IMG/VR virus record: IMGVR_UViG_3300021400_000219
Span: 121,970-139,573 of that record
Direction: 5' to 3' (one strand)
DNA: 17,604 nt
Source: a virus
Both the position numbers and the translations under genes were made by a program. Below the pieces are notes generated by a model. The model saw only the letters and a list, made by a program, of their open reading frames with translations. It searched no databases and was not told where the DNA came from. How positions within the stretch are numbered: the first letter of the stretch is position 1; the number at the start of each line of letters is the position of its first letter. This document shows positions 1,121-17,433 of the stretch, in pieces.

Positions 1121-1255
1121 CCGTGCGCCGGCGGTTCAAGGTGTGCCCTATTATGAGGGGTAAGCGTGTGAGCCCTTATAGCCTTAAAGGTATAAAGCTT
1201 TAAAGCTTTAAAGGTCTAGTTTTGCCCGGGCGAATTAGCGCAGGCTAACCGCAGG

Positions 1256-1292
1256 TAAAAATTAAACCCCCAGGGGTTTGGACCCCCTGGGG
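1256..1292 (-). terminator. Intrinsic terminator of the non-coding transcript
   Basis: 9-bp GC stem (CCCCAGGGG/CCCCTGGGG) followed by UUUAAUUUUU on the minus strand. Confidence 0.6.
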
Positions 1293-1586
1293 TAGGACCA
1301 TTTTTTGGCAGGTTGGTGTCCCTTCCACCTACGCTTGTTAAATAAATCCAGTAGGATACATGGTATCACCTCCATAGTATTTGAAACCACTCTTTGGCGG
1401 GCTGGCTTCTACTCCCATTCTATTACGTAAATCCAGAGTAATACATTTCTAAATCACCTCAACAATAATTTTTAATTCTTTAGTGTTTCGCTAGACGAAA
1501 CCTGTGGGGAACCTACGCATGGCCCTCTCTCCCTTCCTAGTCTATTCCGCAGGGGAGGTTTGGCGCCTTGCCCTCTCCCTTGGAAC
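1262..1586 (-). ncRNA. Candidate about 320-nt non-coding transcript bounded by a promoter and a terminator. It has a conserved leader (AUAAUUGUUCCAAGGGAGAGGG), a GTTTCG-tcta-CGAAAC tetraloop hairpin, and two tandem 7-codon mini-ORFs
   Basis: Promoter TTGACA-17-TATACT at 1593-1621 on the minus strand. Intrinsic terminator: hairpin CCCCAGGGG-N-CCCCTGGGG at 1267-1292 followed by UUUAAUUUUU. No ORF above 7 codons. Mini-ORFs MYYSGFT* and MYPTGFI* are each preceded by GAGGTGAT or GGAGGTGATACC. Confidence 0.5.
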
Positions 1587-1713
1587 AATTATAGTATAAC
1601 AGATAGGGCCGTATTTGTCAAGGGGTTTTTGAAAAAAATTTAATGGAATTTTCTGGAAGTTGCGCCCGGGCGCGTTAGCCTAAGCTAACTCCCAGATAAA
1701 GGGAAAGCGGGGA

Positions 1714-2082
1714 TTACTCCCCGCTAACCGCCTTGAAATAGGTGGTGCGCTTCTCCTGCACCTTCTCCACAGTGCCAGCCTCAACCATCTGCCGAAGCAG
1801 AGCCGAAGCCCACTGGGAGGACTTGCCAAAGTTGGCACCCACATCCTTAGCCTGCCGCAGGAGGTTGGGGTCCTCCATCAGGAAATCCAGAATCTGGACC
1901 TTGAACCCCTCGTTCTCCAGCTGCTTCTTGGAAGGCTTGCGCTCACCCTTGGAGCTGTTGCGCTTCTGGTAAGAAGCCTTGCAAGCCTCCAGCTTCTCCA
2001 CAACCTCAGCATCGAAGTTGTTGCGGGACAGGAAGTCAATGGCGGAAGTCAGAGCGTCCACATAAGTCATCTTGGTAGCCAT
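1714..2082 (-). CDS. Family A winged-helix-like DNA-binding protein, paralog 1 of 4 (122 aa)
   Basis: ORF-track frame. The C-terminal 60 aa read as helix-turn-helix plus wing (ILDFL...SQWASALLRQMVEAGTVEKVQEKRTTYFKA). An SD site (AGAAAGGA) sits 8 nt before the ATG. The TAA stop lies in the loop of the AGCGGGGA/TCCCCGCT hairpin. Two promoters lie upstream. Confidence 0.75.
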   Translation of the reverse strand: MATKMTYVDALTSAIDFLSRNNFDAEVVEKLEACKASYQKRNSSKGERKPSKKQLENEGFKVQILDFLMEDPNLLRQAKDVGANFGKSSQWASALLRQMVEAGTVEKVQEKRTTYFKAVSGE

Positions 2083-2132
2083 AGTATCAATCCTTTCTGG
2101 TTTGGGAGGTTTTCCTTCCTCTTTATGTATTT

Positions 2133-2161
2133 ATTGTATCACAGGTTTGAGGGTTTGTCAA
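2133..2161 (-). promoter_or_regulatory. Proximal promoter TTGACA-17-TGnTACAAT for family A gene 1714..2082. A distal TTGACT-17-TATACT promoter lies at 2233-2261
   Basis: Consensus hexamers and an extended -10 TG. Confidence 0.6.
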
Positions 2162-2321
2162 GACCTTTTTTTGATTTTTTTGAAAATCTTTTTTCGGCCT
2201 TGGCCGTTGTCCCTCTCCCTTGGAACAATTATAGTATAGCAGAAGGGGGGCCAAAAGTCAATTACAAAGTAGAAACAAAATGGTTACAATTTGGTTACAG
2301 GCGCCCGGGCGGAAAACTGCA

Positions 2322-2597
2322 TCAAGCGTGATGCAATTTTCCATCAACGACATAAGTTATACTTTCAAGGCCATCATACTCATCAATTTCCCAGTCGGTA
2401 CAGTTGTCAGGAAGGTCTACCATCACAAGGTTTGCGGTGTAGCCAGAAATATCTTTAGAACCATACTCGTGCATTAACATGATTAAACGCTCATCAGTGC
2501 GTTCAATCATGGCGTAAGGATGTTTCAGACCCAGCTTGTTACAAGCCATAGGAGAAAGAGAAAAACCACCATAGCATTTATTCAACACAATCTTCAT
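2322..2597 (-). CDS. Hypothetical protein (91 aa)
   Basis: ORF-track frame. GAAGGAGGT sits 8 nt before the ATG. Promoter TTGACT-17-TATATT at 2629-2657. Confidence 0.7.
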   Translation of the reverse strand: MKIVLNKCYGGFSLSPMACNKLGLKHPYAMIERTDERLIMLMHEYGSKDISGYTANLVMVDLPDNCTDWEIDEYDGLESITYVVDGKLHHA

Positions 2598-2698
2598 TTG
2601 AAGTTACCTCCTTCGTTTCTGTAATTATAATATACCACAGTATTCGCTAATAGTCAAGTTACATTTTGGTTACAGAAATGCCCGGGCGCTTCACTGCG

Positions 2699-2839
2699 CT
2701 AAAGCAGTGAAGAACGCCATTTTATTTTCCAGCAATACCAAAACTTAAAAATATTATACGGTTTTACCCCCATCAAATACGCCCCCTTTTTATGCACTTT
2801 ATACGCATCAAAAAACTTTCTTTCAATAATCTTTCTCAT
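2699..2839 (-). CDS. Small hypothetical protein (46 aa, MRKIIERKFFDAYKVHKKGAYLMGVKPYNIFKFWYCWKIKWRSSLL). Probably translationally coupled to the upstream exonuclease gene
   Basis: Not in the ORF track because it is under 60 aa. The ATG lies 4 nt after the exonuclease TAA, with AAGGGGGAA 8 nt upstream. The TAG stop sits in the loop of the CTTCACTGC/GCAGTGAAG hairpin immediately before GCCCGGGCG, which matches the cassette rule seen elsewhere. Confidence 0.4.
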   Translation of the reverse strand: MRKIIERKFFDAYKVHKKGAYLMGVKPYNIFKFWYCWKIKWRSSLL

Positions 2840-2843
2840 TTAT

Positions 2844-3536: not shown

Positions 3537-3699
3537 AGTATCAATTCCCTTCTTTTTTTTCTTGGGGTTTCTGACCCCCTCAACAATTATTATTATAGCA
3601 GGTTTTTTGAAAATTGCAAGATGGTAAATTGCACAAAATGCGCAGGTAGTTTTTGTGCAAAATGCCGGGGCGCCCGGGCGGGAGTTAGCCGCAGCTAAC

Positions 3700-3834
3700 T
3701 CACCATGTATGCGTGTCAATGTATTCCACAAAATACCATGCAGGCATACAAAGATAATAAATACCTAACAGAAACAGGGCCGCAATAAGCTTAAAGGGAA
3801 ACAGAATATAATTTTTAATACGCTTTTTATTCAT
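3700..3834 (-). CDS. Small predicted membrane protein (44 aa, MNKKRIKNYILFPFKLIAALFLLGIYYLCMPAWYFVEYIDTHTW)
   Basis: I translated it by hand; it is under the track threshold. AAAGGA sits 9 nt before the ATG. One hydrophobic transmembrane-like segment. The TGA stop directly abuts the GTTAGCCGCAGCTAAC palindrome and GCCCGGGCG. Confidence 0.45.
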   Translation of the reverse strand: MNKKRIKNYILFPFKLIAALFLLGIYYLCMPAWYFVEYIDTHTW

Positions 3835-3878
3835 TTTTATTTATCCTTTCTTTTGGAATAATAGGGGGCTTGCGCCCC

Positions 3879-4229
3879 CTACTTTCTTTTTTGCGTCAAT
3901 GTCAACTCAAACTTCTTTCCGTCAACCTCAAAAGCAATAACTCTTTCCTTGTTAGTGATTTCAAGGTTATCAACGGAGTTAGTCAGAAAGTTAGCAATTT
4001 CCGCAATCAAATGGCCTTTGGTTTCGTTGGGTTTTCTTTCCCTTTTGGTGAATTTGTAAGCCGTAGGCTTTCTGTCTGCCTGCCTTGCTTTCTTTTCCAC
4101 CTTTTTCTGTTCAGCCGTCAAGGGGAACGGGTCTGCGCCCTTGTCGATTTCTTTATCAGTGGCAATGATTTCCATCGCTTCCTGTTCAGAAATATCAAGG
4201 ACTTTCATCAGTCTTTCCTTTTGGTTCAT
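3879..4229 (-). CDS. Family B protein, paralog 1 of 2 (116 aa), adjacent to a family A gene
   Basis: Start set to the internal ATG (codon 27 of the track ORF), which is preceded by AAGGGGTGATACC and promoter TTGACT-17-TATAAT at 4254-4282. Paralog of 9262..9615 with a shared KK..RQADRKP motif. The TAG stop is part of the TAGGGGGC/GCCCCCTA hairpin. Confidence 0.7.
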   Translation of the reverse strand: MNQKERLMKVLDISEQEAMEIIATDKEIDKGADPFPLTAEQKKVEKKARQADRKPTAYKFTKRERKPNETKGHLIAEIANFLTNSVDNLEITNKERVIAFEVDGKKFELTLTQKRK

Positions 4230-4253
4230 GGTATCACCCCTTCCTTGATTATT

Positions 4254-4282
4254 ATTATAAGGGATAGAGGGCCAAAAGTCAA
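4254..4282 (-). promoter_or_regulatory. Promoter TTGACT-17-TATAAT for family B gene 3879..4229
   Basis: Consensus hexamers. It is flanked upstream by two GTTAG/CTAAC palindromes and CCCGGG. Confidence 0.6.
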
Positions 4283-4363
4283 GATAAATTTGTTCGTCAA
4301 TTTGCACAAAAGTGGTTAGTATAGGCTAACCGCACCCGGGAGAGTTAGTGTGCGCTAACTTCC

Positions 4364-4392
4364 AGAAAAAGGAAAAGGCCCCACATGGGGCC
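4364..4392 (-). terminator. Intrinsic terminator after family A gene 4399..4761
   Basis: GGCCCCauguGGGGCC followed by UUUUCCUUUUUCU. Confidence 0.65.
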
Positions 4393-4398
4393 TAATCC

Positions 4399-5037: not shown

Positions 5038-5066
5038 TAGACAAGCGCATGTTTTTGTGATAAAAT
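5038..5066 (+). promoter_or_regulatory. Plus-strand promoter TAGACA-17-TGaTAAAAT. It fires convergently toward the 3' end of gene 5171..5458 and into GC-rich element A
   Basis: Hexamers and spacing. A TTGCACAA box sits upstream, and a divergent minus promoter (TTGCAA-16-TATAAT at 4961-4988) sits back-to-back with it. Confidence 0.45.
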
Positions 5067-5145: not shown

Positions 5146-5170
5146 AGCGCCCGGGAGAGTTAGCGAGGGC

Positions 5171-5458
5171 TTACCCCTCGCTCGTATCTACTCCCAGAAT
5201 AATCAACAGACTACAGATAGTGCCCCACGCATGGACGCCCATGTCCTCAGGGATTGCATCCCACACATCAGGATACAGACGGCGCACACCAGAGAGAAGC
5301 ATCCCGCCCCAGTTACCACCGCAAGCGGTACACAAGTCAAGGAAATCTTTAAAACTCATTTTAGTTTTCTGCGCCATGCACGCATAGACAACAACTTCAT
5401 CGCCCCACTCGTTCCGCACAGTATCAAGGGCTTCCATGAAATCAGAATGAAGAATCAT
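5171..5458 (-). CDS. Hypothetical protein (95 aa)
   Basis: Its start overlaps the stop of the upstream small basic gene (ATGA overlap at 5455-5458), with AAAGGAG 8 nt upstream. The TAA stop is in the loop of the CGAGGG/CCTCG hairpin. Confidence 0.65.
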   Translation of the reverse strand: MILHSDFMEALDTVRNEWGDEVVVYACMAQKTKMSFKDFLDLCTACGGNWGGMLLSGVRRLYPDVWDAIPEDMGVHAWGTICSLLIILGVDTSEG

Positions 5459-5601: not shown

Positions 5602-5716
5602 TGCTTTGTTCCTCCCTCTTGGATTGTCTATAGTATAGCAGATAATCAGGGATTTGTCAATACTTTTGGACAAAAAAGTTTAAGGAAATATTTTCCAGGG
5701 CCCGGGCACTTGGAAA

Positions 5717-5995
5717 TTACTCCCAAGTCCCTTCCAGATAAAGCTGGATAATTCTAGTAGCCATTTTCTTGGGCTCCAGCATAGTCACGTCATCCTCATC
5801 CCAAGGGAACTGATAGGATTCAACCATTCCCTTGTCACTCCCATAGGTACCAGCATGACAAGCAACATCACCTTCATGCCAAGGGAAACGCAACTGCATC
5901 CCTTCAAAAATAGGATTAACAGTGAAAGGAACGCTTGCAAAAGTCAGGCAGGCAATCACAGCATTAATAGCATCAGTATACTTGTTAGTGAACAT
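5717..5995 (-). CDS. Hypothetical protein (92 aa)
   Basis: Start at the ATG at 5993-5995, preceded by AAAGGAGGAA. Promoter TTGACA-17-TACAAT at 6026-6054 with a short conserved leader (GACTACAGTAAAACAAAGGAGG). The TAA stop is in the loop of the ACTTGG/CCAAGT hairpin. Confidence 0.7.
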   Translation of the reverse strand: MFTNKYTDAINAVIACLTFASVPFTVNPIFEGMQLRFPWHEGDVACHAGTYGSDKGMVESYQFPWDEDDVTMLEPKKMATRIIQLYLEGTWE

Positions 5996-6025: not shown

Positions 6026-6054
6026 ATTGTACCACATGGTAAAGCATTTGTCAA
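6026..6054 (-). promoter_or_regulatory. Promoter TTGACA-17-TGgTACAAT with an upstream UP-like element (AATTCCATTAAATTTTTTTGAAAAA)
   Basis: Hexamers and spacing. The same roughly 50-bp upstream module recurs at 1625-1665, 6583-6635, 7351-7395, 8589-8633 and 9181-9225. Confidence 0.65.
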
Positions 6055-6115
6055 TAGGTTTTTCAAAAAAATTTAATGGAATTTTTTTCCAGTTACCCGG
6101 GCGTGTGCTGGAAAT

Positions 6116-6295
6116 TTATTCCAGCACTTCCACCTCTTCCCAATCCCAAAACTCTTCATTAGGATTCCAGAATGTGGCAAAATCATCACATTCATCAATG
6201 GCAGAAACTCCCAGTTTACAGCGTCCATCCTTTTCCCAGTAGGGACAATCCCAGCCGTTGACAGTGCAGTAAATAACCATTCTTTTTTCTTTCAT
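6116..6295 (-). CDS. Small Cys-rich acidic protein (59 aa, C-x6-C-x8-C-x9-C), possibly metal-binding
   Basis: Under the track threshold. Its ATG overlaps the TGA of gene 6292..6504 as an ATGA overlap. GGAAAGTGATACA sits before the ATG. The TAA stop is in the loop of the GCTGGAA/TTCCAGC hairpin next to CCCGGGCG. Confidence 0.5.
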   Translation of the reverse strand: MKEKRMVIYCTVNGWDCPYWEKDGRCKLGVSAIDECDDFATFWNPNEEFWDWEEVEVLE

Positions 6296-6504: not shown

Positions 6505-6647
6505 AATGTATCACCTTCCTATTGGATTTGTTTCCTTCCCTTGGAACAACTATAGTATAGCACAGCAGAGGGTCTTTGTCAATACTAAATTGAAAAAAAT
6601 TTGATGGAATTTTTGGAAATGTTTTCCAGTGCCCGGGTGATGGTGAC

Positions 6648-6827
6648 TTAGTCACCATCCCTTTCTTCAAATTCACATACAGGACAAATAAAATCTCTAA
6701 AGTCTTCCTCTTCCCAATCAGATTCATAGATAGGCTCGCCGCACTCGGGACAATTATAAAATCGTTCATCCCAATTTACGAAACCGCCGAATACATTTTC
6801 AACAATCTTTGCATTCAGTTCCCACAT
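6648..6827 (-). CDS. Small zinc-ribbon-like acidic protein (59 aa, CPEC...CPVC, D/E-rich C-terminus)
   Basis: Internal ATG of track ORF 6648..6908, preceded by AAGGAGGT with 7 nt spacing. That SD site overlaps the stop of the upstream 34-aa peptide gene. The TAA stop is in the loop of the GGTGAC/GTCACC hairpin. Confidence 0.6.
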   Translation of the reverse strand: MWELNAKIVENVFGGFVNWDERFYNCPECGEPIYESDWEEEDFRDFICPVCEFEERDGD

Positions 6828-6945: not shown

Positions 6946-7041
6946 GTTATTACCTCCCTCATTTCTGTAATTATAGTATACCACAAATTATCCAAAAGTC
7001 AAGTTACAATTTGGTTACAAACACCCGGGCGCGAAGGTGAC

Positions 7042-7281
7042 TTAGTCACCCTCATTCGTCTTCATTGGAAACAGGTCGTCCAGATTGGTAACACCTGGAA
7101 TAAATTCAGTAATAAAAGAAAAAGGTCTTGCTTCTGCCAATTCTACGTTGTCAATGTCCCACACATCATCAAAGGCTTCTTCGCACGGCGGGCGTAATCC
7201 CTTCCAAAATTTGGTTTCTGCTTCCTCTGCGGTTTCCGCTTCAATCATGCAATAACCAGAAAAATCAATGTACCATTTCAT
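7042..7281 (-). CDS. Small highly acidic protein (79 aa), candidate DNA-mimic or anti-defence protein
   Basis: ORF-track frame. AAAGGAG sits 9 nt before the ATG. Promoter TTGACA-17-TATACT at 7322-7350. The TAA stop is in the loop of the same GGTGAC-tta-GTCACC hairpin used by 6648..6827. Confidence 0.7.
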   Translation of the reverse strand: MKWYIDFSGYCMIEAETAEEAETKFWKGLRPPCEEAFDDVWDIDNVELAEARPFSFITEFIPGVTNLDDLFPMKTNEGD

Positions 7282-7321: not shown

Positions 7322-7350
7322 AGTATAACACTTCACAGGGCATTTGTCAA
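7322..7350 (-). promoter_or_regulatory. Promoter TTGACA-17-TGtTATACT for acidic gene 7042..7281
   Basis: Consensus hexamers and an extended -10. Confidence 0.65.
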
Positions 7351-7439
7351 TAGAAAATTGAAAAAAATTTAATGGAATTTATTCCCATTTACCCGGGCGC
7401 GTTAGCTGCTGCTAACTCTGGAAGAAAAAGGAAGGGGGA

Positions 7440-7805
7440 TTACTCCCCCTTCACCTGGAAGCGGCTGACCCGCTTCTCCACAACCTTCTCCACGGTTCCA
7501 GCTTCTACCAGCTGGCGCAGAAGGGCGGAAGCCTGCTGGCTGGAAGAGAGTTCCAGTTCGGCGGCTACTTCCTTCGCCTGCATAGGCTCGTGGTCAGTCA
7601 GCAGTTCAACGATGCGGGCCTTGATACCCTCGTTTTCAATCTGCTTCTTGGTGGGCTTGCGCTCGCCCTTGGACTTGGAAGCGTTCCGCTTCTCATAGCT
7701 GGCCTTGCAAGCAACCAGCTTTTCCATGGCTTCCTCGTTGAAGTCAGCGGGCAGGGAAGCAATAGCCATTTCCAGAGCCTTCACATAAGTCATCTTGTTA
7801 GTCAT
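7440..7805 (-). CDS. Family A winged-helix-like DNA-binding protein, paralog 3 (121 aa)
   Basis: Start set to the ATG at 7803-7805 (GGTAGTGCATACT context). The C-terminus (...VEKRVSRFQVKGE) parallels paralog 1. The stop is in the loop of the AAGGGGGA/TCCCCCTT hairpin. Two tandem promoters at 7880-7908 and 8019-8047. Confidence 0.75.
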   Translation of the reverse strand: MTNKMTYVKALEMAIASLPADFNEEAMEKLVACKASYEKRNASKSKGERKPTKKQIENEGIKARIVELLTDHEPMQAKEVAAELELSSSQQASALLRQLVEAGTVEKVVEKRVSRFQVKGE

Positions 7806-8117
7806 AGTATGCACTACCTTTCTCTGTTTTAACGAGTTCAGCTCTCAATCTGTTTTGTTCTTTCCCTTACTGTGGCTTTATTATACCACAGGTTCAGGGG
7901 TTTGTCAAGAGTTTTTTTGAATTTCTCTTGATTTTTTTGGAGCCATTTTTTAGGTGGGCTACTTCCAACACCCGACTGTTGGCGGTTTTTTAGGTGCGCT
8001 CCCTCACCCGACATCATTATATTACCACAGGTTGCTCCATTTGTCAAGGGTTTTTTCAAAAGTTTTTTCTGGAATTTCTACCAAGATTTTCCAGCGACCC
8101 GGGCGAGTTAGCGGGGG

Positions 8118-8495
8118 TTAACCCCGCTTGTACTCTTTAGTGCCCATAGAGTAAGGAATGTTGTACATCTCACAAGCTTCAATGGCGTACCCGATTGCCA
8201 GATTTGCCATTTCCTGGGCTTGCTCATACTTTCTGTTAGGGGTAATCTTGTAAAGAAAATGGTCATTCTGAACCTGTTCAAACAAGTAGGACATTTTCAG
8301 TCGTGCATGAGCTTCGACGGCAAGCCGCTCAGATTTGGTAGCTTTTGGCATTTTAATCCATGCTAAACACTGAAAATGTTCATTCTGTCTGATGCTGGAA
8401 AGACGCTGTGCTGGGGTGTCTTTGCCAGTTTCACCCAGCTTGAAAACACCATTCTTACGGCAGAAATAATTAAAACCAGTATAAAAGCAAGCCAT
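8118..8495 (-). CDS. Hypothetical protein (125 aa)
   Basis: ORF-track frame. Promoter TTGACA-17-TATACT at 8560-8588. The TAA stop is in the loop of the AGCGGGG/CCCCGCT hairpin next to CCCGGGCG. Confidence 0.65.
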   Translation of the reverse strand: MACFYTGFNYFCRKNGVFKLGETGKDTPAQRLSSIRQNEHFQCLAWIKMPKATKSERLAVEAHARLKMSYLFEQVQNDHFLYKITPNRKYEQAQEMANLAIGYAIEACEMYNIPYSMGTKEYKRG

Positions 8496-8649
8496 TATTC
8501 ATTCTCCATTCATTTTTTATTGATTGGGGTTTACCTTCGTTCCCCTCAACCTTGATTATAGTATAGCAGATAGGAATGGATTTGTCAATACCTTTTTTCA
8601 AATTTTTTAATGGAATTTTTTTCCAGTTGCCCGGGCGCAGGAGTTAGCA

Positions 8650-8955
8650 TTAGCTAACTCCATTTTCTTCCAGACAAAATTCAAAACTCAAATCTTTTAC
8701 CACTTTTTGGGAAATGTATTCACGCACAAGGAAAAGCTCTAAATCTCTAGCCTGCTCCTCTACATAGCTACGGCGCAAATCGCGCACAGTGGAAAGATTT
8801 ACCATCGGGTATTCCATAGGATAACCACGCGCAACCACAATTACATTGTAAAGATTTTCCACGGGGTTCACCCTCATTCTCTTTTTCTTCTGGAATTTAT
8901 TGGTTTTATTGCGTTCAACTTTCGTTCTAAATTCTTTCATTTTTGCCTTGCTCAT
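8650..8955 (-). CDS. Hypothetical protein with a basic N-terminus (101 aa)
   Basis: Start set to the ATG at 8953-8955, which overlaps the TGA of the upstream membrane-protein gene (ATGA). The TAA stop lies in the loop of the GTTAGC-atta-GCTAAC palindrome. Confidence 0.6.
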   Translation of the reverse strand: MSKAKMKEFRTKVERNKTNKFQKKKRMRVNPVENLYNVIVVARGYPMEYPMVNLSTVRDLRRSYVEEQARDLELFLVREYISQKVVKDLSFEFCLEENGVS

Positions 8956-9119: not shown

Positions 9120-9261
9120 TTTAATTACCTCCTGGTTCATTTCTTGAGTATAGTATAACAGATGGGAGAGGATTTGTCAATACCTTTTTTAGAAAAATTT
9201 ACTGGAAATGTTTTCCAAGTGCCCGGGCGGCGCTTTAGCGCACTGAAGCGCTAAAGCATCC

Positions 9262-10101: not shown

Positions 10102-10629
10102 AGAGTTTTTTGCAGTTTTTCTGATTTTTTTTGTGAGAACCACGAATGGAAAAAACTCTCAAAAAATTATCGTTTGAAACTCTGTCCCTAGGGCTTTGGG
10201 GCCCCTTGCCCTTTGGACAAGTATAATATAACACATTGGGGCGCGTTTGTCAATACTGATTTGAAAATTTGGGGGCATTCTCTGTTTTGCACAATTTTGA
10301 TGCAAAAATTGCGTCATTTTTGTGCATTTTGACGGCGCGCCCGGGTGAACTACCAATTTCAGGAAAAGCTGGGGTCAAGAGAGAACAAGGAAATTCATTG
10401 AAAAATTTGGTAACGATTTCCAGCGCGCGACACCGGAACCCCTGGGCCGTGTGCGTGTGCGACGGGTGCACGCAGTATTTATTTATACAAGCGGAACTAA
10501 TAGAAAAATCAATTTAAAATATTTATACATATTTATTTATTATTAAGGGTACCGGCGCAATTCTCAAATCAAAAACCTTCCAGGTCTATTTACTTCTGGA
10601 AAATGAAATAAAAATAGGGGCTGATTTAT

Positions 10630-11341: not shown

Positions 11342-11485
11342 TCTGACCAACCCTTTCTTTAAAAGGTTTTTTATCTTTTCTGTATTATTATAATACCAAA
11401 TTTTTTTATAAAAGTCAATAGGGAATCGCAAATTTTAGAAGTTTGTGCAATTTGCACAAAAGCGCCCGGGCGAGTTACCCTGTGC

Positions 11486-11725
11486 TTACAAGGTAACTTT
11501 GCACTGTCTAAAATCATGCCACAGATGGGGCTGAGTCAGCGGAGACCGCAGGGAATAAGCTTGGTATTGCAAGAAAGATAAAATGCGGATTTCTGTTATT
11601 GTAGTTTCATCATCTAAATCAAACTTTTTATTTATTACAGAGCCGTGCAATCTGCCAGGGGTTTTTGCAAAAACTTTAGTAGTAAAACCAAACGGGTCCA
11701 TAATCTTAATCTCATAATAATTCAT
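11486..11725 (-). CDS. Hypothetical protein (79 aa). Second gene of an operon. Its 3' extent is uncertain
   Basis: ATG at 11723-11725, preceded by AAAGGAGAA 9 nt upstream. The C-terminal third reads through a hairpin-rich region, so the gene may be shorter than annotated. Confidence 0.45.
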   Translation of the reverse strand: MNYYEIKIMDPFGFTTKVFAKTPGRLHGSVINKKFDLDDETTITEIRILSFLQYQAYSLRSPLTQPHLWHDFRQCKVTL

Positions 11726-11927: not shown

Positions 11928-12046
11928 TGAAGTTACCTCCTTATTCATTTCGTACCCTTATTATAAGCGATGTTTTGCGATTTGTCAAGGGGTTTATGCG
12001 ATTTTTCTTCTGGAATTTTTTGGTTATGGCGCCCGGGTGGCTGGCC

Positions 12047-12490
12047 TTACCCGATATGGGCGGCCAGCCAAGCCAGCATCTTTTTGCTTTCTTTAGCGCA
12101 CCGGATTTTCATCCCGCCGCCGTTCTTCTGGCTTTCCCGCTCGGTCTTGCAGAACTCGGTGCAGAAGGCGGTGAACTCGTCCCGGTTCATCATATAGACC
12201 TGATAATCGGCGGTAACGTAGGCCCAGAGGTTGCTGTGGGTGCGCTCCATATAGAGGGCCCAGATTTCATCATAAGTTTCCCGGCCTTCGCACAGGGTGG
12301 CGCTCATAAGGGTGAAGGCAGAAGCCTTGACGGAGATGAGCATTTCACCAAGCTCGATATCAGAGCCTTTGTCATATGCACCGCTATCATGGGTGGTGCG
12401 GTCGATGCCCATATAGTGGCACAGATCGTGCTCACGGGCAATGCCCTTATTAGTAGCGGGGGAAACGTGGTCAATCTTGAAGGTCTTCAT
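12047..12490 (-). CDS. Hypothetical protein (147 aa)
   Basis: Start at the ATG at 12488-12490, preceded by AGGAAAGGGAG. Promoter TTGACT-17-TATACT at 12522-12550. The TAA stop is in the loop of the GGCTGGCC/GGCCAGCC hairpin. The overlapping plus ORF 11927..12523 is rejected. Confidence 0.65.
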   Translation of the reverse strand: MKTFKIDHVSPATNKGIAREHDLCHYMGIDRTTHDSGAYDKGSDIELGEMLISVKASAFTLMSATLCEGRETYDEIWALYMERTHSNLWAYVTADYQVYMMNRDEFTAFCTEFCKTERESQKNGGGMKIRCAKESKKMLAWLAAHIG

Positions 12491-12726
12491 CTGAAGCACT
12501 CCCTTTCCTTAGGATGGTTATAGTATAGCACCATTCCCCGGGATAGTCAATACAAAATCGCAAATTTCCCCTTGTGCAAATTATACAAATGTTGGAGCGG
12601 ATTTTTGGGGGCTGTTGTGCAAGTTGCACAATTAGTGTAACCTGGGTCACATTAAAAGTAACAAAAGAGTTACAATCTCTAACAATCAATTACAATCTTT
12701 TTTTTACTTTCAAAACACTTTTTTTA

Positions 12727-13463: not shown

Positions 13464-13540
13464 GGTCTTATTATAGCACCCGCAAGGGGTTTTGTCAAGG
13501 GTTTTTTCTTTTTTTTTTTTTGTTCCCGGAGGGCCGGGGC

Positions 13541-13699
13541 TTAGTAGCCCCAGCCGATGGAGGTTACCCTCCATCCCTCCTCCCGCAGTGCGGGATAAAG
13601 GGCGGCGAAACTCGCCAACCCGTGTTCCCACACACGGGACTCACAGGCCCACAGGCCAGTGAAGAGGTTCCGATGGAACCGGATGTATTCAATTTTCAT
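13541..13699 (-). CDS. Small hypothetical protein (52 aa, W-rich)
   Basis: Internal ATG of track ORF 13541..13816, preceded by AAAGGAGGT. Promoter TTGACA-17-TATAAT at 13720-13748 with the conserved leader GATTACAGTAAAACAAAGGAGG. The TAA stop is in the loop of the GGGGCT/AGCCCC hairpin. Confidence 0.55.
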   Translation of the reverse strand: MKIEYIRFHRNLFTGLWACESRVWEHGLASFAALYPALREEGWRVTSIGWGY

Positions 13700-13759
13700 G
13701 GAAGTGACCTCCTTTGTTTTACTGTAATCATTATAGCAGACCCGCCCGGGTTTGTCAAC

Positions 13760-13925
13760 CCTTTTTTTCATTTTTTTTATTTTTTTTTGGTTCCCCATAC
13801 CCCTCCGGGGAACCACTGGCCGGCTATTTTTTACCTCCCGCCCTAGGGGGTGGCCCTTGGTACTTTGTGGGGTATCTTGCCCACGTTTCCCAGAGGGAGG
13901 GCCCGGAGGGTTTCCCCTCCTGACA
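13760..13925 (-). ncRNA. Second GC-rich non-coding segment, a partial paralog of the 13170-13463 RNA
   Basis: It shares about 30 nt with the other RNA (GAAACGUGGGC.AGAUAC.CCCACAAAGUA). It lies downstream of a weaker promoter, TAGACT-17-TATTAT, at about 13930-13960. It ends in the hairpin GGUUCCCC...GGGGAACC, followed by an A-rich run rather than a U-run. Confidence 0.3.
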
Positions 13926-14007
13926 TGATTATAATACCACAGGCCCGGCTAAAAGTCTATTGACAAATCTCACAAATCGGGATGTTCTATTTTGTGCATT
14001 TTTACTC

Positions 14008-14037
14008 TTGACAGCCGAGCCTATTTTGTGGTATAAT
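14008..14037 (+). promoter_or_regulatory. Plus-strand promoter TTGACA-18-TGgTATAAT, transcribing into GC-rich element B
   Basis: Near-consensus hexamers. The conserved upstream sequence GCATTTTTACTCTTGACA is shared with the promoter at 16916. Confidence 0.55.
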
Positions 14038-14138
14038 ATTTCTGTACTGCCTGCGCGCGCGGTCGCCGGCCGTTAGCGGGGGCTAACTGTGCCTGGGTGT
14101 GCGCCTTTATTGCAATAAAGCACTAAAGTGCACAAGGG

Positions 14139-14171
14139 CAAAAAACTACGAGGATTTTTTAATCCTCGTAG
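14139..14171 (-). terminator. Intrinsic terminator overlapping the stop codon of 14159..14290
   Basis: CUACGAGGAU-UAA-AAAAUCCUCGUAG followed by UUUUUUG. The stop codon is in the loop. Confidence 0.65.
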
Positions 14172-14290
14172 TCAATGGCGATGACCTTCCAGCCCTTGGG
14201 CGGTTCGTAGTTTTCCGGCAGGCCCTTCCAGAGAATCAATTCAGTATCGGCCCACTCTCCATCAATCTTTCTGATTTCAATGCTCCACAT
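14159..14290 (-). CDS. Small hypothetical protein (43 aa)
   Basis: Internal ATG of track ORF 14159..14383. Promoter TTGACA-17-TATAAT at 14343-14371 and a leader of the AAUCAGAAAGAGGGAAGGAAAACC type. The TAA stop is in the loop of terminator ACGAGGAU/AUCCUCGU, followed by UUUUUUG. Confidence 0.5.
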   Translation of the reverse strand: MWSIEIRKIDGEWADTELILWKGLPENYEPPKGWKVIAIDYED

Positions 14291-14385
14291 AATCTTTTTT
14301 CCTTTCTGGTTTGTTAGGTTTTCCTTCCCTCTTTCTGATTGTATTATAGCAGACTCAACCGGGTTTGTCAACCCCTTTTTCAAAT

Positions 14386-14529
14386 TTATTTAATTCTTTT
14401 TACTTTGATAACCTTAGCCCCAGAGTATTCAGCTTTTCCCTCTTTCAGAAATTTGCGGTTAGGATTGACAAGGGTGATGGTAGATTCTTCGCCGCAAAGG
14501 CTGATGGTAATTTCATAAATCTTTTTCAT
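14386..14529 (-). CDS. Small hypothetical protein (47 aa)
   Basis: Hand translation. Promoter TTGACA-17-TATAAT at 14563-14591 has no other ORF downstream of it. GGAAAGGAAA sits before the ATG. Confidence 0.4.
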   Translation of the reverse strand: MKKIYEITISLCGEESTITLVNPNRKFLKEGKAEYSGAKVIKVKRIK

Positions 14530-14609
14530 TTTTTTTCATTTCCTTTCCTTTTTTCTGTCTTTATTATAGCATCGGCCGGGCGATTTGTCAACCCCTTTTT
14601 TGAAATTTT

Positions 14610-14756
14610 TTAGGGAAATTTATCTCTCCCTAAAAAACAATCCCGCATAAATTCCAACTGTTCCAGAGAAAAGCGGGCCGCAAATTGTGCGGGCGTCTCT
14701 TCAAAGAGATGGTATCCGTTGGCAACCATTTCCATTACAACTTCCAGCTTTTTCAT
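14610..14756 (-). CDS. Small hypothetical protein (48 aa)
   Basis: Internal ATG, preceded by AAAGGAGGAA. Promoter TTGACA-16-TATAAT at 14787-14814. The N-terminal WYNKGTKTKEE in the track is a translated -10 element and leader. Confidence 0.55.
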   Translation of the reverse strand: MKKLEVVMEMVANGYHLFEETPAQFAARFSLEQLEFMRDCFLGRDKFP

Positions 14757-15022
14757 TTTGTGTTCCTCCTTTGTTTTTGTACCTTTATTATACCATACTT
14801 TTGGCAAATGTCAAGACCTTTTTTCAATTTTCTTTTGGTCTTTGCGGGTCCGACCCCCGCACCCTCTGAAGGGCTGTTGTCGGCTTGGAGGTCCTTCCTA
14901 CTGGGACCCCGTCCTTGATTATTATTATAGCAGATAATAGCCAAAAGTCAATTACAAAATGGTTACAATTTTATTTCAGAATGGTTACAATTTGCGCCCG
15001 GGCAAATGGGAAAAAGAGGGAA

Positions 15023-15487
15023 TTACTTCCCTCTCGCCCATGTCAGAACGTCCATAATCATTTCAGGATTGAAGGCCCAACCTTCCATTTCTTCCCACTC
15101 AATCACATTGTTTTCTTCATCGTCAAACAGAATCCCATTTTTCACGGTGGGCACTGTGCTTTTGGGCGTCCCATAGGGAACAATGTTGATTTCATCAAAG
15201 TGAACGCTTGCAAGGTGTTTCTTGAGCCAATTCTTTTTGGCTTCAATAACCTTTTCGTCAAATTCCTTGTTGCTATTCTTAGCTAACCAACTAACTACCC
15301 CGATTGTCCATCCCTTTTTCTGAAGGTTATTCAACCGACGGGCAAGGGCGTTCATGTTTACCAGAGGCTTAGCAACTTCATAGGGGAAGGGATTGTTTTC
15401 CAGTAGATAACCCAGCCAGTTTTCTACGCCGTAGAAGTTGGCGATTGTTCCATCCATGTCAAAGTAGATTGCCCGATTGATTTTCAT
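15023..15487 (-). CDS. HAD-superfamily hydrolase, 5'(3')-nucleotidase-like, paralog 2 (154 aa)
   Basis: IYFDMDGTIANF and GILFDDEE motifs. AAAAGGAG sits 9 nt before the ATG. Promoter TTGACA-16-TATACT at 15519-15546. The TAA stop is in the loop of the GAGGGAA/TTCCCTC hairpin. Confidence 0.75.
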   Translation of the reverse strand: MKINRAIYFDMDGTIANFYGVENWLGYLLENNPFPYEVAKPLVNMNALARRLNNLQKKGWTIGVVSWLAKNSNKEFDEKVIEAKKNWLKKHLASVHFDEINIVPYGTPKSTVPTVKNGILFDDEENNVIEWEEMEGWAFNPEMIMDVLTWARGK

Positions 15488-15590
15488 TTTGTTCAGCTCC
15501 TTTTCTTTTTCTGATTATAGTATACCACAAATTCCGGGATTGTCAAGAGTTTTTTTCAAAAAAATCAAAAAACTTTTTTCAAAAAACCTC

Positions 15591-15619
15591 TTGACAAATT
15601 GAAAAAACTGTGATACAAT
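15591..15619 (+). promoter_or_regulatory. Plus-strand promoter TTGACA-17-TGtGATACAAT, whose transcript starts AAAGGGGGAAUUA followed by U19
   Basis: It sits back-to-back with the minus promoter of HAD gene 2 (15519-15546). The two -35 regions form an inverted repeat, CCTCTTGACAAATT. Confidence 0.55.
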
Positions 15620-15632
15620 AAAGGGGGAATTA

Positions 15633-15651
15633 TTTTTTTTTTTTTTTTTTT
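15633..15651 (+). repeat. Homopolymeric T19 tract at +15 of a plus-strand transcript
   Basis: Counted directly. A second tract, T26, lies at 17475-17500 in the same context. There are also T13 at 13511-13523 and T-runs at 13766-13790. Confidence 0.8.
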
Positions 15652-15705
15652 GGTTAGCTTAGGCTAACTTAGGTTAGTATGTGCTAACTACCCGGGCGCA
15701 AGAAA

Positions 15706-16026
15706 TCAGCCCTTGGGCTGATTCTCGCAAGCCTTTTTATTATTGTTCAGGGTTTTCATTAAAGACTTGGGGCACTTTTCGCAGTTGTGGCAATTCTTGT
15801 AAATGCTGATTCCCTGACTAACAGTTGCGATAAACATTGTTACCAGATTGTTAGTAGTTGCATTGTATACAATCACAATCCCCTTTTCAGTGAGAACAAC
15901 CTTGCCATCGTTGTTGTCGTAGGTTTCTGCGATTGCAGGCCCAAACTCGCCCTTGCAATAGTCGATGATGTAGGAAATTCTTTCCATCCTCTCAACCTTG
16001 GCGTGATAACTGACTTTCTTTGTCAT
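15706..16026 (-). CDS. Hypothetical protein (106 aa) with a C-terminal Cys cluster (CHNCEKC)
   Basis: ATG at 16024-16026, preceded by AAAAGGGG 9 nt upstream. Promoter TTGACA-17-TATACT at 16060-16088. Confidence 0.6.
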   Translation of the reverse strand: MTKKVSYHAKVERMERISYIIDYCKGEFGPAIAETYDNNDGKVVLTEKGIVIVYNATTNNLVTMFIATVSQGISIYKNCHNCEKCPKSLMKTLNNNKKACENQPKG

Positions 16027-16149
16027 TTTTGACAACCCCTTTTCTTATTTTCTGACTAAAGTATAGCACACATTCCCGCAGTTGTCAATACCTTTTTTCA
16101 AATTTTTTCAGATTTTTTTGAACCGGGCGAATGGAAAAAGCTGGAAGTG

Positions 16150-16479
16150 TTACCACTCCCAGCCATCAAACCAACCATCATACCGAACAGAAACAATCTC
16201 ATCGTCATAGATAATGGGGGTATTTCTGTCATACATTACCATTGACACAATGTCACCCACAATCCAGTCACCTTCGCAATCTGTAAAGCACCATTCATTC
16301 CCGTTGAAATCCTTGCAGGTGACAAGTTTGCACTCGTCGTTGATTTCTACTATCACAGTTGTCATTGCATACAGGTTAGCAGTCTTTCCGCTTGCGGCGT
16401 CAGCGTTCACACTTGCGCCGATGCACATACCGCACACCATAACCACCAAAAGAACCATCACACTAATCAGCTTTTTCAT
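16150..16479 (-). CDS. Secreted Cys-rich small protein with an N-terminal Sec signal peptide (109 aa)
   Basis: MKKLISVMVLLVVMVCGMCIGASVNA followed by DAA, which is a typical signal peptide with an AxA cleavage site. AAAGGAGGAAAA sits 6 nt before the ATG. Promoter TTGACA-16-TATAAT at 16510-16537. Confidence 0.7.
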   Translation of the reverse strand: MKKLISVMVLLVVMVCGMCIGASVNADAASGKTANLYAMTTVIVEINDECKLVTCKDFNGNEWCFTDCEGDWIVGDIVSMVMYDRNTPIIYDDEIVSVRYDGWFDGWEW

Positions 16480-16585
16480 TTTGTTTTCCTCCTTTGTTTT
16501 ACTGTAATCATTATACCATACTTTTGGAATTTGTCAAGAGGTTTTTTCAAATTTCCCGGAAAATCTTTTGAGAGGGTTTCCCCTC

Positions 16586-16807
16586 TCAAAAAATGTTTAC
16601 CATTTCAGGCTTTACCATCTCAACAGGAAGGAAACAACCGCTTTTGCAGTAAACTTCTTGTTTCACGTTTCCATCTTTGATAACCAGACGATACACGCCG
16701 CAGGTTCTTCCAGCCGCTTCCATTTTTGCTTGTTTCCAAGCTTTTCCAAAAGCTGCAGTATCCTCAAACTCAAACCCCGCAACCTGATAAACAAACTTCT
16801 TAGCCAT
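16586..16807 (-). CDS. Hypothetical protein (73 aa)
   Basis: AAGGAAAGGGG sits before the ATG. Promoter TAGACA-17-TATAAT at 16840-16868. The TGA stop is inside terminator hairpin TTTTGAGAGGG/CCCTCTCAAAA. Confidence 0.7.
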   Translation of the reverse strand: MAKKFVYQVAGFEFEDTAAFGKAWKQAKMEAAGRTCGVYRLVIKDGNVKQEVYCKSGCFLPVEMVKPEMVNIF

Positions 16808-16915
16808 TTTAATGACCCCTTTCCTTAATTTCTATATTTATTATAGCATCCTGTAAGCTATTTGTCTATTGGTAAATTGCACAAAAAAGTTTTTGATTTT
16901 TGGGCATTTTTACTC

Positions 16916-16944
16916 TTGACATTCGCTGTAAATTGTGGTAAAAT
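16916..16944 (+). promoter_or_regulatory. Plus-strand promoter TTGACA-17-TGgTAAAAT, transcribing into GC-rich element C
   Basis: Hexamers and spacing. An upstream TTGCACAA box lies at about 16877-16884. Confidence 0.55.
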
Positions 16945-17046
16945 AAAATGGGGAGCTGTTGTTCGCGCGCGCCGAAGGCCGTTAGCGGCCGCTAACCGGG
17001 TGTGCGTGTGCGCACCTTTATAGCTTTAATGGGTTAAAGTAACCGG

Positions 17047-17076
17047 GTAAAAAAGAGAAGGACTTTTCAGTCCTTC
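17047..17076 (-). terminator. Intrinsic terminator overlapping the stop codon of 17067..17294
   Basis: GAAGGACU-GAAA-AGUCCUUC followed by UCUUUUUUACC. The stop TGA is in the loop. Confidence 0.65.
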
Positions 17077-17294
17077 ATCCCCATTTCTACGAAAACTTCA
17101 AAGCCTTCAAAGTAGTAAGTCCGCCATTCGCCTTCAAATTCAATTTCTTCCCGCTCCGCCATTTCAGACAGAACTACTTCAACTTCCTGCAAGGCCCGCC
17201 ATTCTGCAGCATCACCATCAAACCGAACTGCTACAACACCATCTTCAAACTCAACCTCAAAAGCTTCCAGCATTTCAAGAATCATTTCTAACAT
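17067..17294 (-). CDS. Small extremely acidic protein (75 aa, about one third E/D), candidate DNA-mimic or anti-restriction-like protein
   Basis: AGAAAGGAAA sits before the ATG. Promoter TTGACT-16-TATACT at 17347-17374. The TGA stop is in the loop of terminator GAAGGACU/AGUCCUUC, followed by UCUUUUUUACC. Confidence 0.7.
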   Translation of the reverse strand: MLEMILEMLEAFEVEFEDGVVAVRFDGDAAEWRALQEVEVVLSEMAEREEIEFEGEWRTYYFEGFEVFVEMGMKD

Positions 17295-17433
17295 TGTTTT
17301 ATTTCCTTTCTGGTTTGTTGGGTTTTCCTTCCCTCTTTCTGATTATAGTATAGCATAAATTCCCGGAAAGTCAAGAGTTTTTTACAGAAAAGTTGTACAA
17401 ATGCCGCACACATTTTTTGTACAGTTTGTCTAT

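Follow-up and report, generated by a model that had tools for sequence, protein, structure and literature searches.

Junctions of hairpin, GC-rich core and predicted promoter flank exchangeable small genes in the early region of a rumen phage

The 17,604-bp stretch of phage DNA analyzed here (the window; 42% GC; positions 121,970 to 139,573 of IMG/VR record IMGVR_UViG_3300021400_000219) carries a hyperplastic region of small early genes, whose ends are marked by a recurring composite junction. Its components are a hairpin that often encloses the stop codon, the GC palindrome CGCCCGGGCG with the hexamer CCCGGG at its center, and a near-consensus predicted promoter. These junctions are best read as composite cassettes like the promoter early stem-loop (PeSL) elements of T4-type phages, present here in a non-T4, Clostridia-type phage and supplemented by a GC core that resembles a protein site. 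We consider it probable that they act as insulator-plus-promoter units for the host RNA polymerase and double as recombination linkers, the GC core being most likely a DNA site for a protein.

The hexamer CCCGGG occurs 22 times in the window, compared with 3.42 ± 1.85 copies expected from dinucleotide-preserving shuffles, from which all motif expectations below were also derived; none of 200 shuffles reached 22. Twenty of the copies lie in intergenic junctions, on the gene strand and downstream of a gene or RNA end, and the remaining two (13750 and 12542) fall within promoter spacers. Anchored on CCCGGG, 20 of the 22 sites give a collinear picture in which a hairpin is followed, after 1-12 nt, by the hexamer. 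At 17 sites a strong promoter of the form TTGACA-17-TGnTATAAT is predicted downstream, making hairpin, 1-12 nt, CCCGGG and promoter the robust core order. The distance from CCCGGG to the -35 box is 40-46 nt at 10 of these 17 sites and 21-23 nt in a short class with TGTAAC repeats. The hexamer keeps to the early region: 19 copies fall in 12.3 kb of it, and the adjoining 8 kb contains none. GC content is 43% in the early region (window 1-12300) and 34% next door (L023:13536-20693).

A preliminary description of this DNA had portrayed every gene as a self-contained cassette bounded by an ordered module of five elements: a hairpin carrying the stop codon, a GTTAGC-N4-GCTAAC palindrome, a 9-mer, an A/T-rich block in two variants and a near-consensus sigma-A promoter. 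The placement of all genes on the minus strand was correct, and the elements are collinear on formal alignment when anchored on CCCGGG. Some 20 CCCGGG junctions, 17 of them with a promoter, were confirmed, but the statement that every gene forms its own cassette is wrong, several transcription units being bicistronic. The complete five-element order, said to recur at nearly every junction, is found at only two or three (1670, 7397 and ~8635), the hairpin-CCCGGG-promoter order being what survives at the 17 sites. The 9-mer GCCCGGGCG had to be given up as a universal element, since it occurs exactly only five times in the window; the real consensus around CCCGGG is the 10-bp palindrome CGCCCGGGCG. 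GTTAGC-N4-GCTAAC is indeed far in excess of chance (20 matches with up to two mismatches versus 0.49 expected), but it precedes CCCGGG at only 6-8 junctions. A stop codon inside a perfect hairpin (stem 6-12 bp) was confirmed for 22 of 35 genes; 13 genes lack one, and in seven of these the next ORF (open reading frame) begins within 13 nt. Only ~7 of the 22 perfect gene-end hairpins have a T-run. The A/T-rich blocks are present, but in at least three classes rather than two: TGGAA..TTCCA with phased A/T tracts, TGTAAC direct repeats, and TTGTGCAA/TGCACAA palindromes. Motifs like TGTAACCAAATTGTAAC (6 observed, 0.11 expected) and AATTCCATTAAATTTTTTT (5 observed, 0.10 expected) are similarly overrepresented.

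Promoter predictions are equally dense. Sigma-70-type matches number 87, compared with 32 ± 6.6 expected, and near-consensus extended -10 promoters (TTGACA-16/17-TGnTATAAT or TATACT) number ~31-35 on the minus and 4-5 on the plus strand; nine minus-strand matches reach the full consensus score of 12/12. In the sequence, A/T-tract blocks lie upstream of the predicted promoters. While this agrees with the near-consensus promoters of the preliminary description, 12 strong ones have no CCCGGG upstream, comprising most of those between 13.5 and 17.4 kb and the second promoter before each of four winged helix-turn-helix (wHTH) paralogs. Some of the box-less promoters in 13470..17374 have CCGG in the spacer. 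The arrangement at 13761-13730, a short hairpin with the -35 box as its loop, recurs at 14374-14343. Conversely, three CCCGGG sites have no promoter nearby.

Exact-protein look-ups showed that a sheep-rumen scaffold (ENA ERZ28612966 scaffold_111, 174,221 bp) is 100% identical to the window, and recovered 34 related loci from rumen assemblies of sheep and cattle. The portion of the 174-kb genome covered here is the window plus 10 kb on either side. The hexamer is identical in sequence to the SmaI/XmaI site, and the idea that such sites beside consensus promoters reflect a synthetic or cloning artefact was dropped because the locus, with natural variation, recurs in independent sheep and cattle metagenomes.

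Conservation was measured in orthologous alignments against ten variants of 85-98% identity. Differences per aligned base were 0% in the -35 hexamer, 1.1% in CCCGGG and 3.2% in the extended -10 element, compared with 6.3% in coding and 6.8% in other non-coding sequence, 8.3% in both the GTTAGC palindromes and the UP (upstream promoter) block, 9.6% in the promoter spacer and 15% in the 3-nt flanks of CCCGGG. At orthologous sites the hexamer is nearly invariant while its flanks vary and gain or lose bases, and selection keeps CCCGGG about as strongly as the promoter hexamers. The preliminary description had predicted a boundary conserved in related genomes, and its core does change less than coding sequence. 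A logo over 129 distinct contexts is a symmetric palindrome, C-G-CCCGGG-C-G, that becomes asymmetric further out; such symmetry would fit a double-stranded DNA site read by a dimeric protein or by an enzyme of the type II kind.

The hairpins show a different pattern of change, with 0.28 unique changes per nt in loops and 0.10 in stems. Sense-strand G·U pairs result from 29 of the 57 stem changes, compared with a fraction of 0.31 under neutrality (P about 1e-3), and several apparent stem breaks are compensated doubles. This suggests that the hairpins, including those of the GTTAGC type at gene ends, are selected as sense-strand structures; RNA would be the simplest substrate, and single-stranded DNA of the same polarity would also fit. 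A role for GTTAGC-N4-GCTAAC as a pure double-stranded operator is weakened by its arm changes, which are nearly all sense-strand C to T and keep G·U pairing, and a role as an SPO1 late -35 box (CGTTAGA) was ruled out by the absence of a -10 partner. A roadblock-terminator role for CCCGGG was ruled out on geometry, because a polymerase stopped by a protein bound just a few nt past the hairpin would not yet have transcribed the 3′ arm of that hairpin.

Gene-order maps of the 34 related contigs show a conserved backbone in which cassettes have been inserted, deleted, replaced and relocated; between the 125-amino-acid gene and the 116-amino-acid gene, for example, there are 0 to 9 genes depending on the contig. 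Three alleles occur downstream of the exonuclease gene and upstream of CCCGGG 2309. The window has a two-gene insert, the L022-type allele is gene-less and consists only of a stop-codon hairpin, a T-run and a GTTAGC palindrome, and contigs L025 and L028 carry an unrelated 61-amino-acid gene at the same junction. In all three, identity resumes exactly at CCCGGGCGCCTGTAACC, the site of CCCGGG 2309. In L026 the 79-amino-acid gene is in a different place and gene order is reshuffled at CCCGGG 7397/7029; the join lies at the 3′ edge of CCCGGG 7397, and a promoter of the TGTAAC class stands in place of one of the TGGAA class. In L048 the 109-amino-acid gene lies ~11 kb from its window position, with a different promoter, its cassette having entered the equivalent of site 5155, where a copy of the 11-bp CCCGGGCGCTT stands on either side of it. 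These cases, together with the gene-order maps, show the same boundary around different cargo, as had been anticipated.

To place exchange points relative to the junction elements we took crossover positions from BLAST segment ends, which are precise to a few bases. Eight of 84 unique breakpoints lie within 3 nt of CCCGGG, where 1.3 are expected (binomial P 4e-5; P 8e-4 against a non-coding-only null). Per 100 bp there are 3.9 junctions in stop codons, 3.0 in CCCGGG ± 3 nt, 1.8 in the hairpin 3′ arm, 1.1 in the leader and ribosome-binding site (RBS), 0.8 in promoters, 0.5 in other non-coding sequence and 0.17 in ORF interiors, which makes the zone of stop codon, hairpin and CCCGGG ~20 times denser in breakpoints than ORF interiors. 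The 3′ end of the cassette through the GC core is the main exchange zone and the leader/RBS the second. CCCGGG is a hot spot, and one of several crossover sites. The proposal of a dedicated recombination element was right in that exchange clusters at the junctions; many breakpoints, however, lie at stop codons and in the leader/RBS, and no recombinase or nuclease was found in the window or the 10 kb on either side.

The resemblance to PeSLs noted in the preliminary description is apt. In T4-type phages PeSLs are composites of ~100 bp in which a stem-loop, serving as terminator or attenuator, accompanies a strong early promoter that has an A/T-rich block upstream; they concentrate in hyperplastic regions, ahead of ORFans, and their copies recombine at several positions in the element, so that genes are deleted, inserted and replaced (Arbiol et al. 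2010, PMC2839356; Comeau et al. 2014, PMC4122927). A G/C motif was put forward by the same authors, as a speculation, as the target of a protein, and cassette mini-circles formed during infection are a further PeSL feature (PMC2839356, PMC4122927). The window matches this in its ~100-bp composites of stem-loop and predicted strong sigma-70-type early promoter with A/T-rich upstream sequence. Its modules are likewise dense in a hyperplastic region beside ORFans, where content varies among the 34 contigs, and the 8 kb alongside has no CCCGGG modules. Close relatives differ by indels, replacements and relocations with crossovers in or next to the element, and a G/C-rich motif is again the suspected protein target. 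In contrast to PeSLs, the stem-loop is apart from the promoter and encloses the stop codon, the near-invariant palindrome is an extra element between hairpin and promoter, and at least three classes of upstream block are interchangeable. The phage itself is of the Clostridia type with apparent TAG reassignment, whereas PeSLs were described in T4-type myoviruses that infect Gram-negative bacteria; Enterococcus phages of 140 kb and Phass-1 are its nearest named relatives, not Tevenvirinae-like phages, and the likeness is functional only.

Other systems share fewer features. The SPO1 host-takeover module (Stewart et al. 1998, summarized in PMC6873191) groups ~25 small early genes into numerous short operons, each with a strong sigma-A promoter and strong RBSs, and lies in the terminal redundancy of the genome. 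It resembles the window as a small-early-gene cluster in short units with strong predicted promoters and RBSs, but no sequence relationship with the window was found. To our knowledge, neither a conserved GC core nor cassette shuffling has been reported for SPO1. The SPO1 resemblance claimed earlier holds only as an analogy; the nearest named relatives belong to the phAss-1/Enterococcus phage EF1 group and are not SPO1-type. Integrons combine a tyrosine-recombinase integrase with attC sites of 57-141 bp that contain paired core sites. Like integron cassettes, those of the window are ORF-sized and end in a structured element, the same cassette occurs at different positions, and an insertion is flanked by a repeated core. 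Unlike them, they carry or adjoin their own promoters, no integrase was found among the scanned window proteins, and the hairpins are short (6-12 bp; 15-28 nt), unrelated in sequence and without R″/L″/L′/R′ organization. GTTAGC..GCTAAC as an integron core-site pair was ruled out, its order being opposite to RYYYAAC..GTTRRRY and its hairpin too short. In cluster A mycobacteriophages such as L5, which are temperate, the stoperators are oriented 13-mers without symmetry to which the immunity repressor binds. There too a single short site recurs 20-30 times across the genome, in the gaps that follow genes, but the site in the window is a symmetric GC palindrome in an apparently lytic phage.

From these data we propose the following scheme. 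A host RNA polymerase of the sigma-A type would start at ~30 extended -10 promoters behind A/T-tract blocks that are UP-like or curved, each promoter serving one or two small ORFs without family assignment. Each unit would end in an RNA hairpin around the stop codon; those with a T-run look like intrinsic terminators, and those without are more likely to stabilize the 3′ end or to attenuate. The palindrome CGCCCGGGCG, 1-12 nt past the hairpin and typically 40-46 nt ahead of the -35 box, would be the site of a dimeric protein, for example a regulator or insulator of early transcription. Because the composite junction is repeated ~20 times in direct orientation, it could act as a portable linker, and recombination within it (including the 6-11 bp of GC core) and in the leader/RBS would insert, delete, replace and relocate cassettes, leaving the expression of neighbors intact. 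This is the mechanism proposed for T4-type PeSLs.

Several considerations weigh against this scheme. The promoters, terminators and transcript ends are sequence predictions, and where the T-run is missing, as at many stop-codon hairpins, the label of terminator is uncertain. Three boxes without a promoter and 12 promoters without a box indicate that promoters do not strictly depend on the core. At 10 contiguous bp, the GC palindrome is on the short side for a classical helix-turn-helix operator, and no protein that binds it was found. Most breakpoints lie away from CCCGGG, and selection for viable recombinants alone would also put junctions at gene boundaries. Finally, the variants are related by descent, so the substitution and breakpoint counts are not fully independent.

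Two other readings give the GC core an active part in exchange or in the transcript, and we regard both as unlikely. In an integron-like system, a nuclease, nickase or recombinase of the phage or host would recognize CGCCCGGGCG, with or without a single-stranded DNA hairpin, and actively move cassettes; the cores GCCCGGGC, GGCCGGCC and CCGGGC would then mark related systems in other rumen phages, an extension that we hold to be as improbable. A near-invariant hexamer with highly variable immediate flanks, including small indels, would suit such an enzyme, as would crossovers at the hexamer edges in both directions, the insertion flanked by an 11-bp core duplication, and a junction density per bp in the core ~4 times that of longer promoter homologies. 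The core also always follows a hairpin of variable sequence, an arrangement compared with attC at the end of integron cassettes, the G·T-type stem changes are as compatible with a sense-strand DNA hairpin as with RNA, and strict palindromic specificity is typical of type II enzymes. Yet no integrase, transposase or nuclease was detected in the window or its 10-kb flanks, with only a weak GIY-YIG match in some relatives, and no recombinase domain in the scanned window proteins. About 90% of breakpoints lie elsewhere (stop codons, RBS/leader, promoters), the left borders of cargo usually lack a core, and in another phage the orthologous site alternates between CCCGGGC and GGCCGGCC.

Alternatively, CCCGGG and the preceding hairpin could together form an RNA processing, pausing or termination signal that sets the 3′ end of early mRNAs. 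The box is tied to unit ends, 1-12 nt past a hairpin at ~17 sites and also at three ends without a promoter, behind hairpins under sense-strand structural selection; moreover, modules of the TGGAA..TTCCA class (class A) have a second hairpin, formed by that repeat, and a T-run after the box, so the box would be transcribed. What makes this doubtful is that the motif and its 2-nt extensions form a symmetric palindrome, which an RNA signal does not need, that CCCGGG has no consistent pairing partner in minimum-energy folds, that it also occurs in promoter spacers, and that its distance to the -35 box is constrained as well (40-46 nt). Least probable, in our judgment, is that the junctions are functionless leftovers of a recent tandem duplication of one promoter module in an ordinary array of early operons, CCCGGG hitch-hiking and the cargo differing through illegitimate recombination and selection. 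Module copies do share long identical stretches (AATTCCATTAAATTTTTTT three times, for instance), breakpoints at gene borders are expected from selection alone, and related phages do without the core. But CCCGGG is conserved ~6 times better than the surrounding non-coding sequence and ~13 times better than its own flanks, it is retained in modules whose other parts fall into three unrelated classes, and analogous GC cores with different flanks occur in at least three other rumen phage lineages.

The wider distribution of these elements was traced through the 230-amino-acid exonuclease-like protein. Homologues 35-41% identical are found in 140-kb Enterococcus phages and Phass-1, which also share nucleotidase genes with the window, and the phage is distantly related to the phAss-1/Enterococcus phage EF1 group. 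That pair represents a proposed new family with TAG recoding and hosts predicted among Clostridia (PMC10607447). A placement with Herelleviridae/SPO1-like phages, taken from the matches to 140-kb Enterococcus phages, was dropped because PMC10607447 puts EF1 with phAss-1 in this separate family. A megablast search of INPHARED phages with the window gave no match, and none of 185,579 GTDB genomes contained a relative of the exonuclease, which leaves no prophage or host clue from that source.

IMG/VR phages with exonucleases 54-63% identical are equally promoter-dense; contig L001 has GCCCGGGCG or CCCGGTCC ahead of the UP block and L002 has CCGGGC between ATATAT repeats. Scanning IMG/VR for CCCGGG-N-TGGAAAA-N-TTCCA returned 13 loci, of which 10 are chance matches in unrelated GC-rich contigs. 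The other three (L009, L017 and L021) form a second rumen phage group with a GC-core junction, in the order terminator, TGGAAAA/TTTTCCA repeats around GCCCGGGC or GGCCGGCC (the SrfI and FseI sites), UP block and promoter, and here an orthologous site switches between the two cores. Searching the literature for GCCCGGGC in connection with phage produced no relevant paper. The GC core is absent from low-GC relatives, Enterococcus phage H1 and Phass-1. Their many small genes each have a TTGACA/TGnTATAAT promoter directly behind a hairpin, as in the window, but unlike in its modules the hairpin loop is itself the -35 box (AAGGGG-TTGACAA-CCCCTT), a layout shared with positions 13761-13730 and 14374-14343 of the window and a PeSL-like composite found at most early-gene junctions of H1 (OP534061: 91.5-100 kb) and Phass-1 (OQ749652), which shares TAG recoding with the window phage. 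This suggests that the hairpin-promoter composite common to core-less relatives is a family trait and the GC core a lineage-specific addition. The word promoter has no occurrence in the text of the Phass-1 paper, which does not discuss the early junctions (PMC10607447).

Table 1. Coordinates of junctions and other features; positions are those of the window unless a contig name is given, and promoters and terminators are predicted
Feature	Position	Strand	Elements
Hyperplastic early-gene region	1225..17374	-	~35 small ORFs in ~25-30 promoter-driven units (gene calls, predicted promoters)
Last unit end	1225..1292	-	terminator hairpin 1292-1268; GTTAGC-like palindrome; CCCGGG 1230-1225; no promoter after
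Full-set junction module	1593..1689	-	stop-codon terminator hairpin 1725-1706; GTTAGC-N4-GCTAAC hairpin; CGCCCGGGCG (CCCGGG 1670-1665); TTCCAG..TTCCA and A/T block; promoter 1621-1593
Junction module	2233..2335	-	stop-codon hairpin 2335-2318; CGCCCGGGCG (2309-2304); TGTAACC direct repeats; promoter 2261-2233
Junction module	2629..2712	-	stop-codon hairpin 2712-2689; CCCGGG 2686-2681; TGTAAC repeats; promoter 2657-2629
Junction module	3592..3701	-	GTTAGC palindrome hairpin 3701-3682; CGCCCGGGCG (3678-3673); TTTGCACAAAA/TTTGTGCAA block; promoter 3619-3592 (TTGCAA-16-TATAAT)
Junction module	4254..4393	-	T-run terminator 4393-4376; GTTAGC palindrome 4360-4343; CCCGGG 4340-4335; second GTTAGC palindrome; TTGTGCAAA; promoter 4282-4254
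Unit end	5150..5182	-	stop-codon hairpin 5182-5162; CCCGGG 5155-5150; GC-rich repeat element instead of close promoter
Junction module	5632..5728	-	stop-codon hairpin 5728-5708; CCCGGG 5706-5701; TGGAAA..TTTCC block; promoter 5660-5632
Junction module	6026..6127	-	stop-codon hairpin 6127-6105; CCCGGG 6101-6096; CTGGAAAAAAATTCCATTAAATTTTTTT block; promoter 6054-6026
Junction module	6554..6659	-	stop-codon hairpin 6659-6639; CCCGGG 6637-6632; TGGAAA..TTTCCA block; promoter 6582-6554
Junction module	6973..7050	-	stop-codon hairpin GGTGAC-TAA-GTCACC 7050-7036; CCCGGG 7029-7024; TGTAACCAAATTGTAAC; promoter 7002-6973
Full-set junction module	7322..7452	-	stop-codon terminator hairpin 7452-7431 with T-run; GTTAGC palindrome 7416-7401; CCCGGG 7397-7392; TGGGAAT..ATTCCA block; promoter 7350-7322; L026 crossover point
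Junction module	8019..8128	-	stop-codon hairpin 8128-8110; CCCGGG 8103-8098; CTGGAAA..TTCCAG block; promoter 8047-8019, which would drive a short non-coding stretch
Junction module	8560..8661	-	stop codon within GTTAGC palindrome hairpin 8661-8640; CCCGGG 8635-8630; CTGGAAAAAAATTCCA block; promoter 8588-8560
Junction module	9152..9257	-	hairpin GCTTTAGCGC..GCGCTAAAGC 9257-9232; CCCGGG 9227-9222; TTGGAAAACATTTCCAG block; promoter 9180-9152
CCCGGG without upstream gene	10225..10345	-	CCCGGG 10345-10340; TGCACAAAA/TTGTGCAAAA palindromes; promoter 10253-10225
Junction module	11390..11497	-	imperfect stop-codon hairpin GTTACC..GGTAAC; CGCCCGGGCG (11470-11465); TTTTGTGCAAATTGCACAAA palindrome; promoter 11418-11390
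Junction module	11960..12070	-	imperfect stop-codon hairpin; CCCGGG 12037-12032; A/T block with TTCCAG; promoter 11988-11960
Promoter with CCCGGG in spacer	12522..12550	-	CCCGGG 12542-12537
Promoter with -35 box as loop of short hairpin	13730..13761	-	GGG-TTGACAAA-CCC; CCCGGG 13750-13745 in spacer
Sub-region of strong promoters without upstream CCCGGG	13470..17374	-	17374, 16868, 16537, 16088, 15546, 14814, 14591, 14371, 13498
Junction module	14924..15034	-	stop-codon hairpin 15034-15015 with T-run; GCCCGGGCG (15002-14997); ATTGTAACCATT repeats; promoter 14951-14924
Non-collinear unit end	15653..15723	-	stop-codon hairpin 15723-15704; CCCGGG 15696-15691; two GTTAGC palindromes 20 bp apart (15688-15653); poly-A tract
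Winged-helix paralogs (four)	1714-2082, 4399-4761, 7440-7805, 9645-10019	-	~120 amino acids; 36-62% identity
Second promoters of winged-helix paralogs	2161, 4859, 7908, 10102	-	
5′(3′)-deoxyribonucleotidase-like HAD paralogs	15023-15487, 10892-11341	-	64% identity
TAG-containing flanking genes	L032:102-1856, L032:1858-3099, L022:14051-14674, L022:13326-13712	-	
TAG-containing flanking gene	L022:17230-17889	+	
Candidate small-RNA stretches	13460-13170, 13940-13830, 14920-14850, 8020-7940, 10225-10130, 4960-4870, 2230-2170, 1590-1250	-	

Few of the early ORFs resemble known proteins. Pfam and PHROGs scans, which took in 30 of the window's proteins, matched only three families: a 5′-deoxynucleotidase (two paralogs), an exonuclease family and, weakly, wHTH; all but three of the ORFs tested are without a family. 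The deoxyribonucleotidase-like HAD protein is the one family conserved in all related phages examined. A model of a winged-helix paralog has a mean confidence (pLDDT) of 83, and its C-terminal 65 residues match ArsR/SmtB/MarR/Zalpha folds; these paralogs give weak PHROG regulator matches, and copies also occur in L001 (three) and L007 (two). Each of the four winged-helix genes is preceded by one promoter, a 60-110 nt non-coding stretch and a second promoter. The proteins are candidates for binding one or several of the repeated palindromes. Flanking genes of the early region contain 3-13 in-frame TAG codons each and no other in-frame stop, which indicates that TAG is reassigned as in code 15. 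In-frame TAG is absent from the 35 early ORFs, which stop at TAA (22), TGA (11) or TAG (2). TAG appears to be read as sense in this phage, matching the published late-gene recoding pattern. Read-through of TAG late in infection would lengthen the products of the two TAG-ending genes, 4229..3879 and 2839..2699, by 13-14 residues.

The window also contains non-coding elements of other kinds. Strong plus-strand promoters (one scoring 12/12 with TG) oppose gene direction at 5038-5190, 14008-14160 and 16916-17075 and point into a repeated GC-rich non-coding element of ~110-140 nt (cgcgcgc..ggccGTTAGCgg..gtgtgcg..ctttaaag), promoter-less copies of which lie at ~1080-1230 and ~10400-10470. The same combination of reverse promoter and GC hairpin is also present in L001, L003, L007 and Phass-1, and has no match in Rfam. 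Promoter-driven, GC-rich, ORF-less stretches on the minus strand are candidate small RNAs (Table 1); that at 4960-4870 is conserved in the distant phage L001 (~8830-8930). None of them reached the Rfam threshold, and at E<=1 the window gave just two sub-threshold chance matches to Rfam; it contains no tRNA or tmRNA genes.

Homopolymer tracts of A21 and A27 (minus strand) lie at 15632-15655 and 17470-17497, with plus-strand promoters at 15591 and 17433 directly upstream that would transcribe AAGGGGGAATT and then 21-27 T. Contigs L033-L035 start at the first tract, which suggests that it either breaks assemblies or marks a physical end. Five GTTAGC-N4-GCTAAC palindromes with an exact 20-bp period occupy 12735-12830, and two more, 20 bp apart, lie at 15653-15688. 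The former fall in a 600-bp non-coding region (12560-13170) with large palindromes, TTGTGCAAA repeats and CTTTAGC..GCTAAAG repeats. The phased array looks like a protein-binding array, and the region as a whole is reminiscent of an origin or of an iteron- or centromere-like array; upstream of the early region there is a comparable field of repeats (L032:5200-6700). At the other end, an extremely A/T-rich non-coding block (430-900) with several TTGATT-17-TATAAT promoter-like sites separates the early region from the next gene (366..1).

Compared with PeSLs, what is new here is the separate stop-codon hairpin, the strictly conserved palindromic core, the interchangeable upstream blocks and the unrelated lineage. 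The modules are predicted to be ready-made, insulated strong expression units for Firmicutes, and the conserved 10-bp GC palindrome gives a starting point in the search for a novel regulator of early transcription or a novel activity in site-specific recombination. Since natural rumen populations supply alleles from before and after exchange, the recombination mechanism is open to study by sequence alone. If our reading is correct, modular shuffling of the PeSL type reaches unrelated large gut and rumen phages with apparent TAG reassignment, which suggests a convergent, general route by which lytic phages trade host-takeover ORFans.

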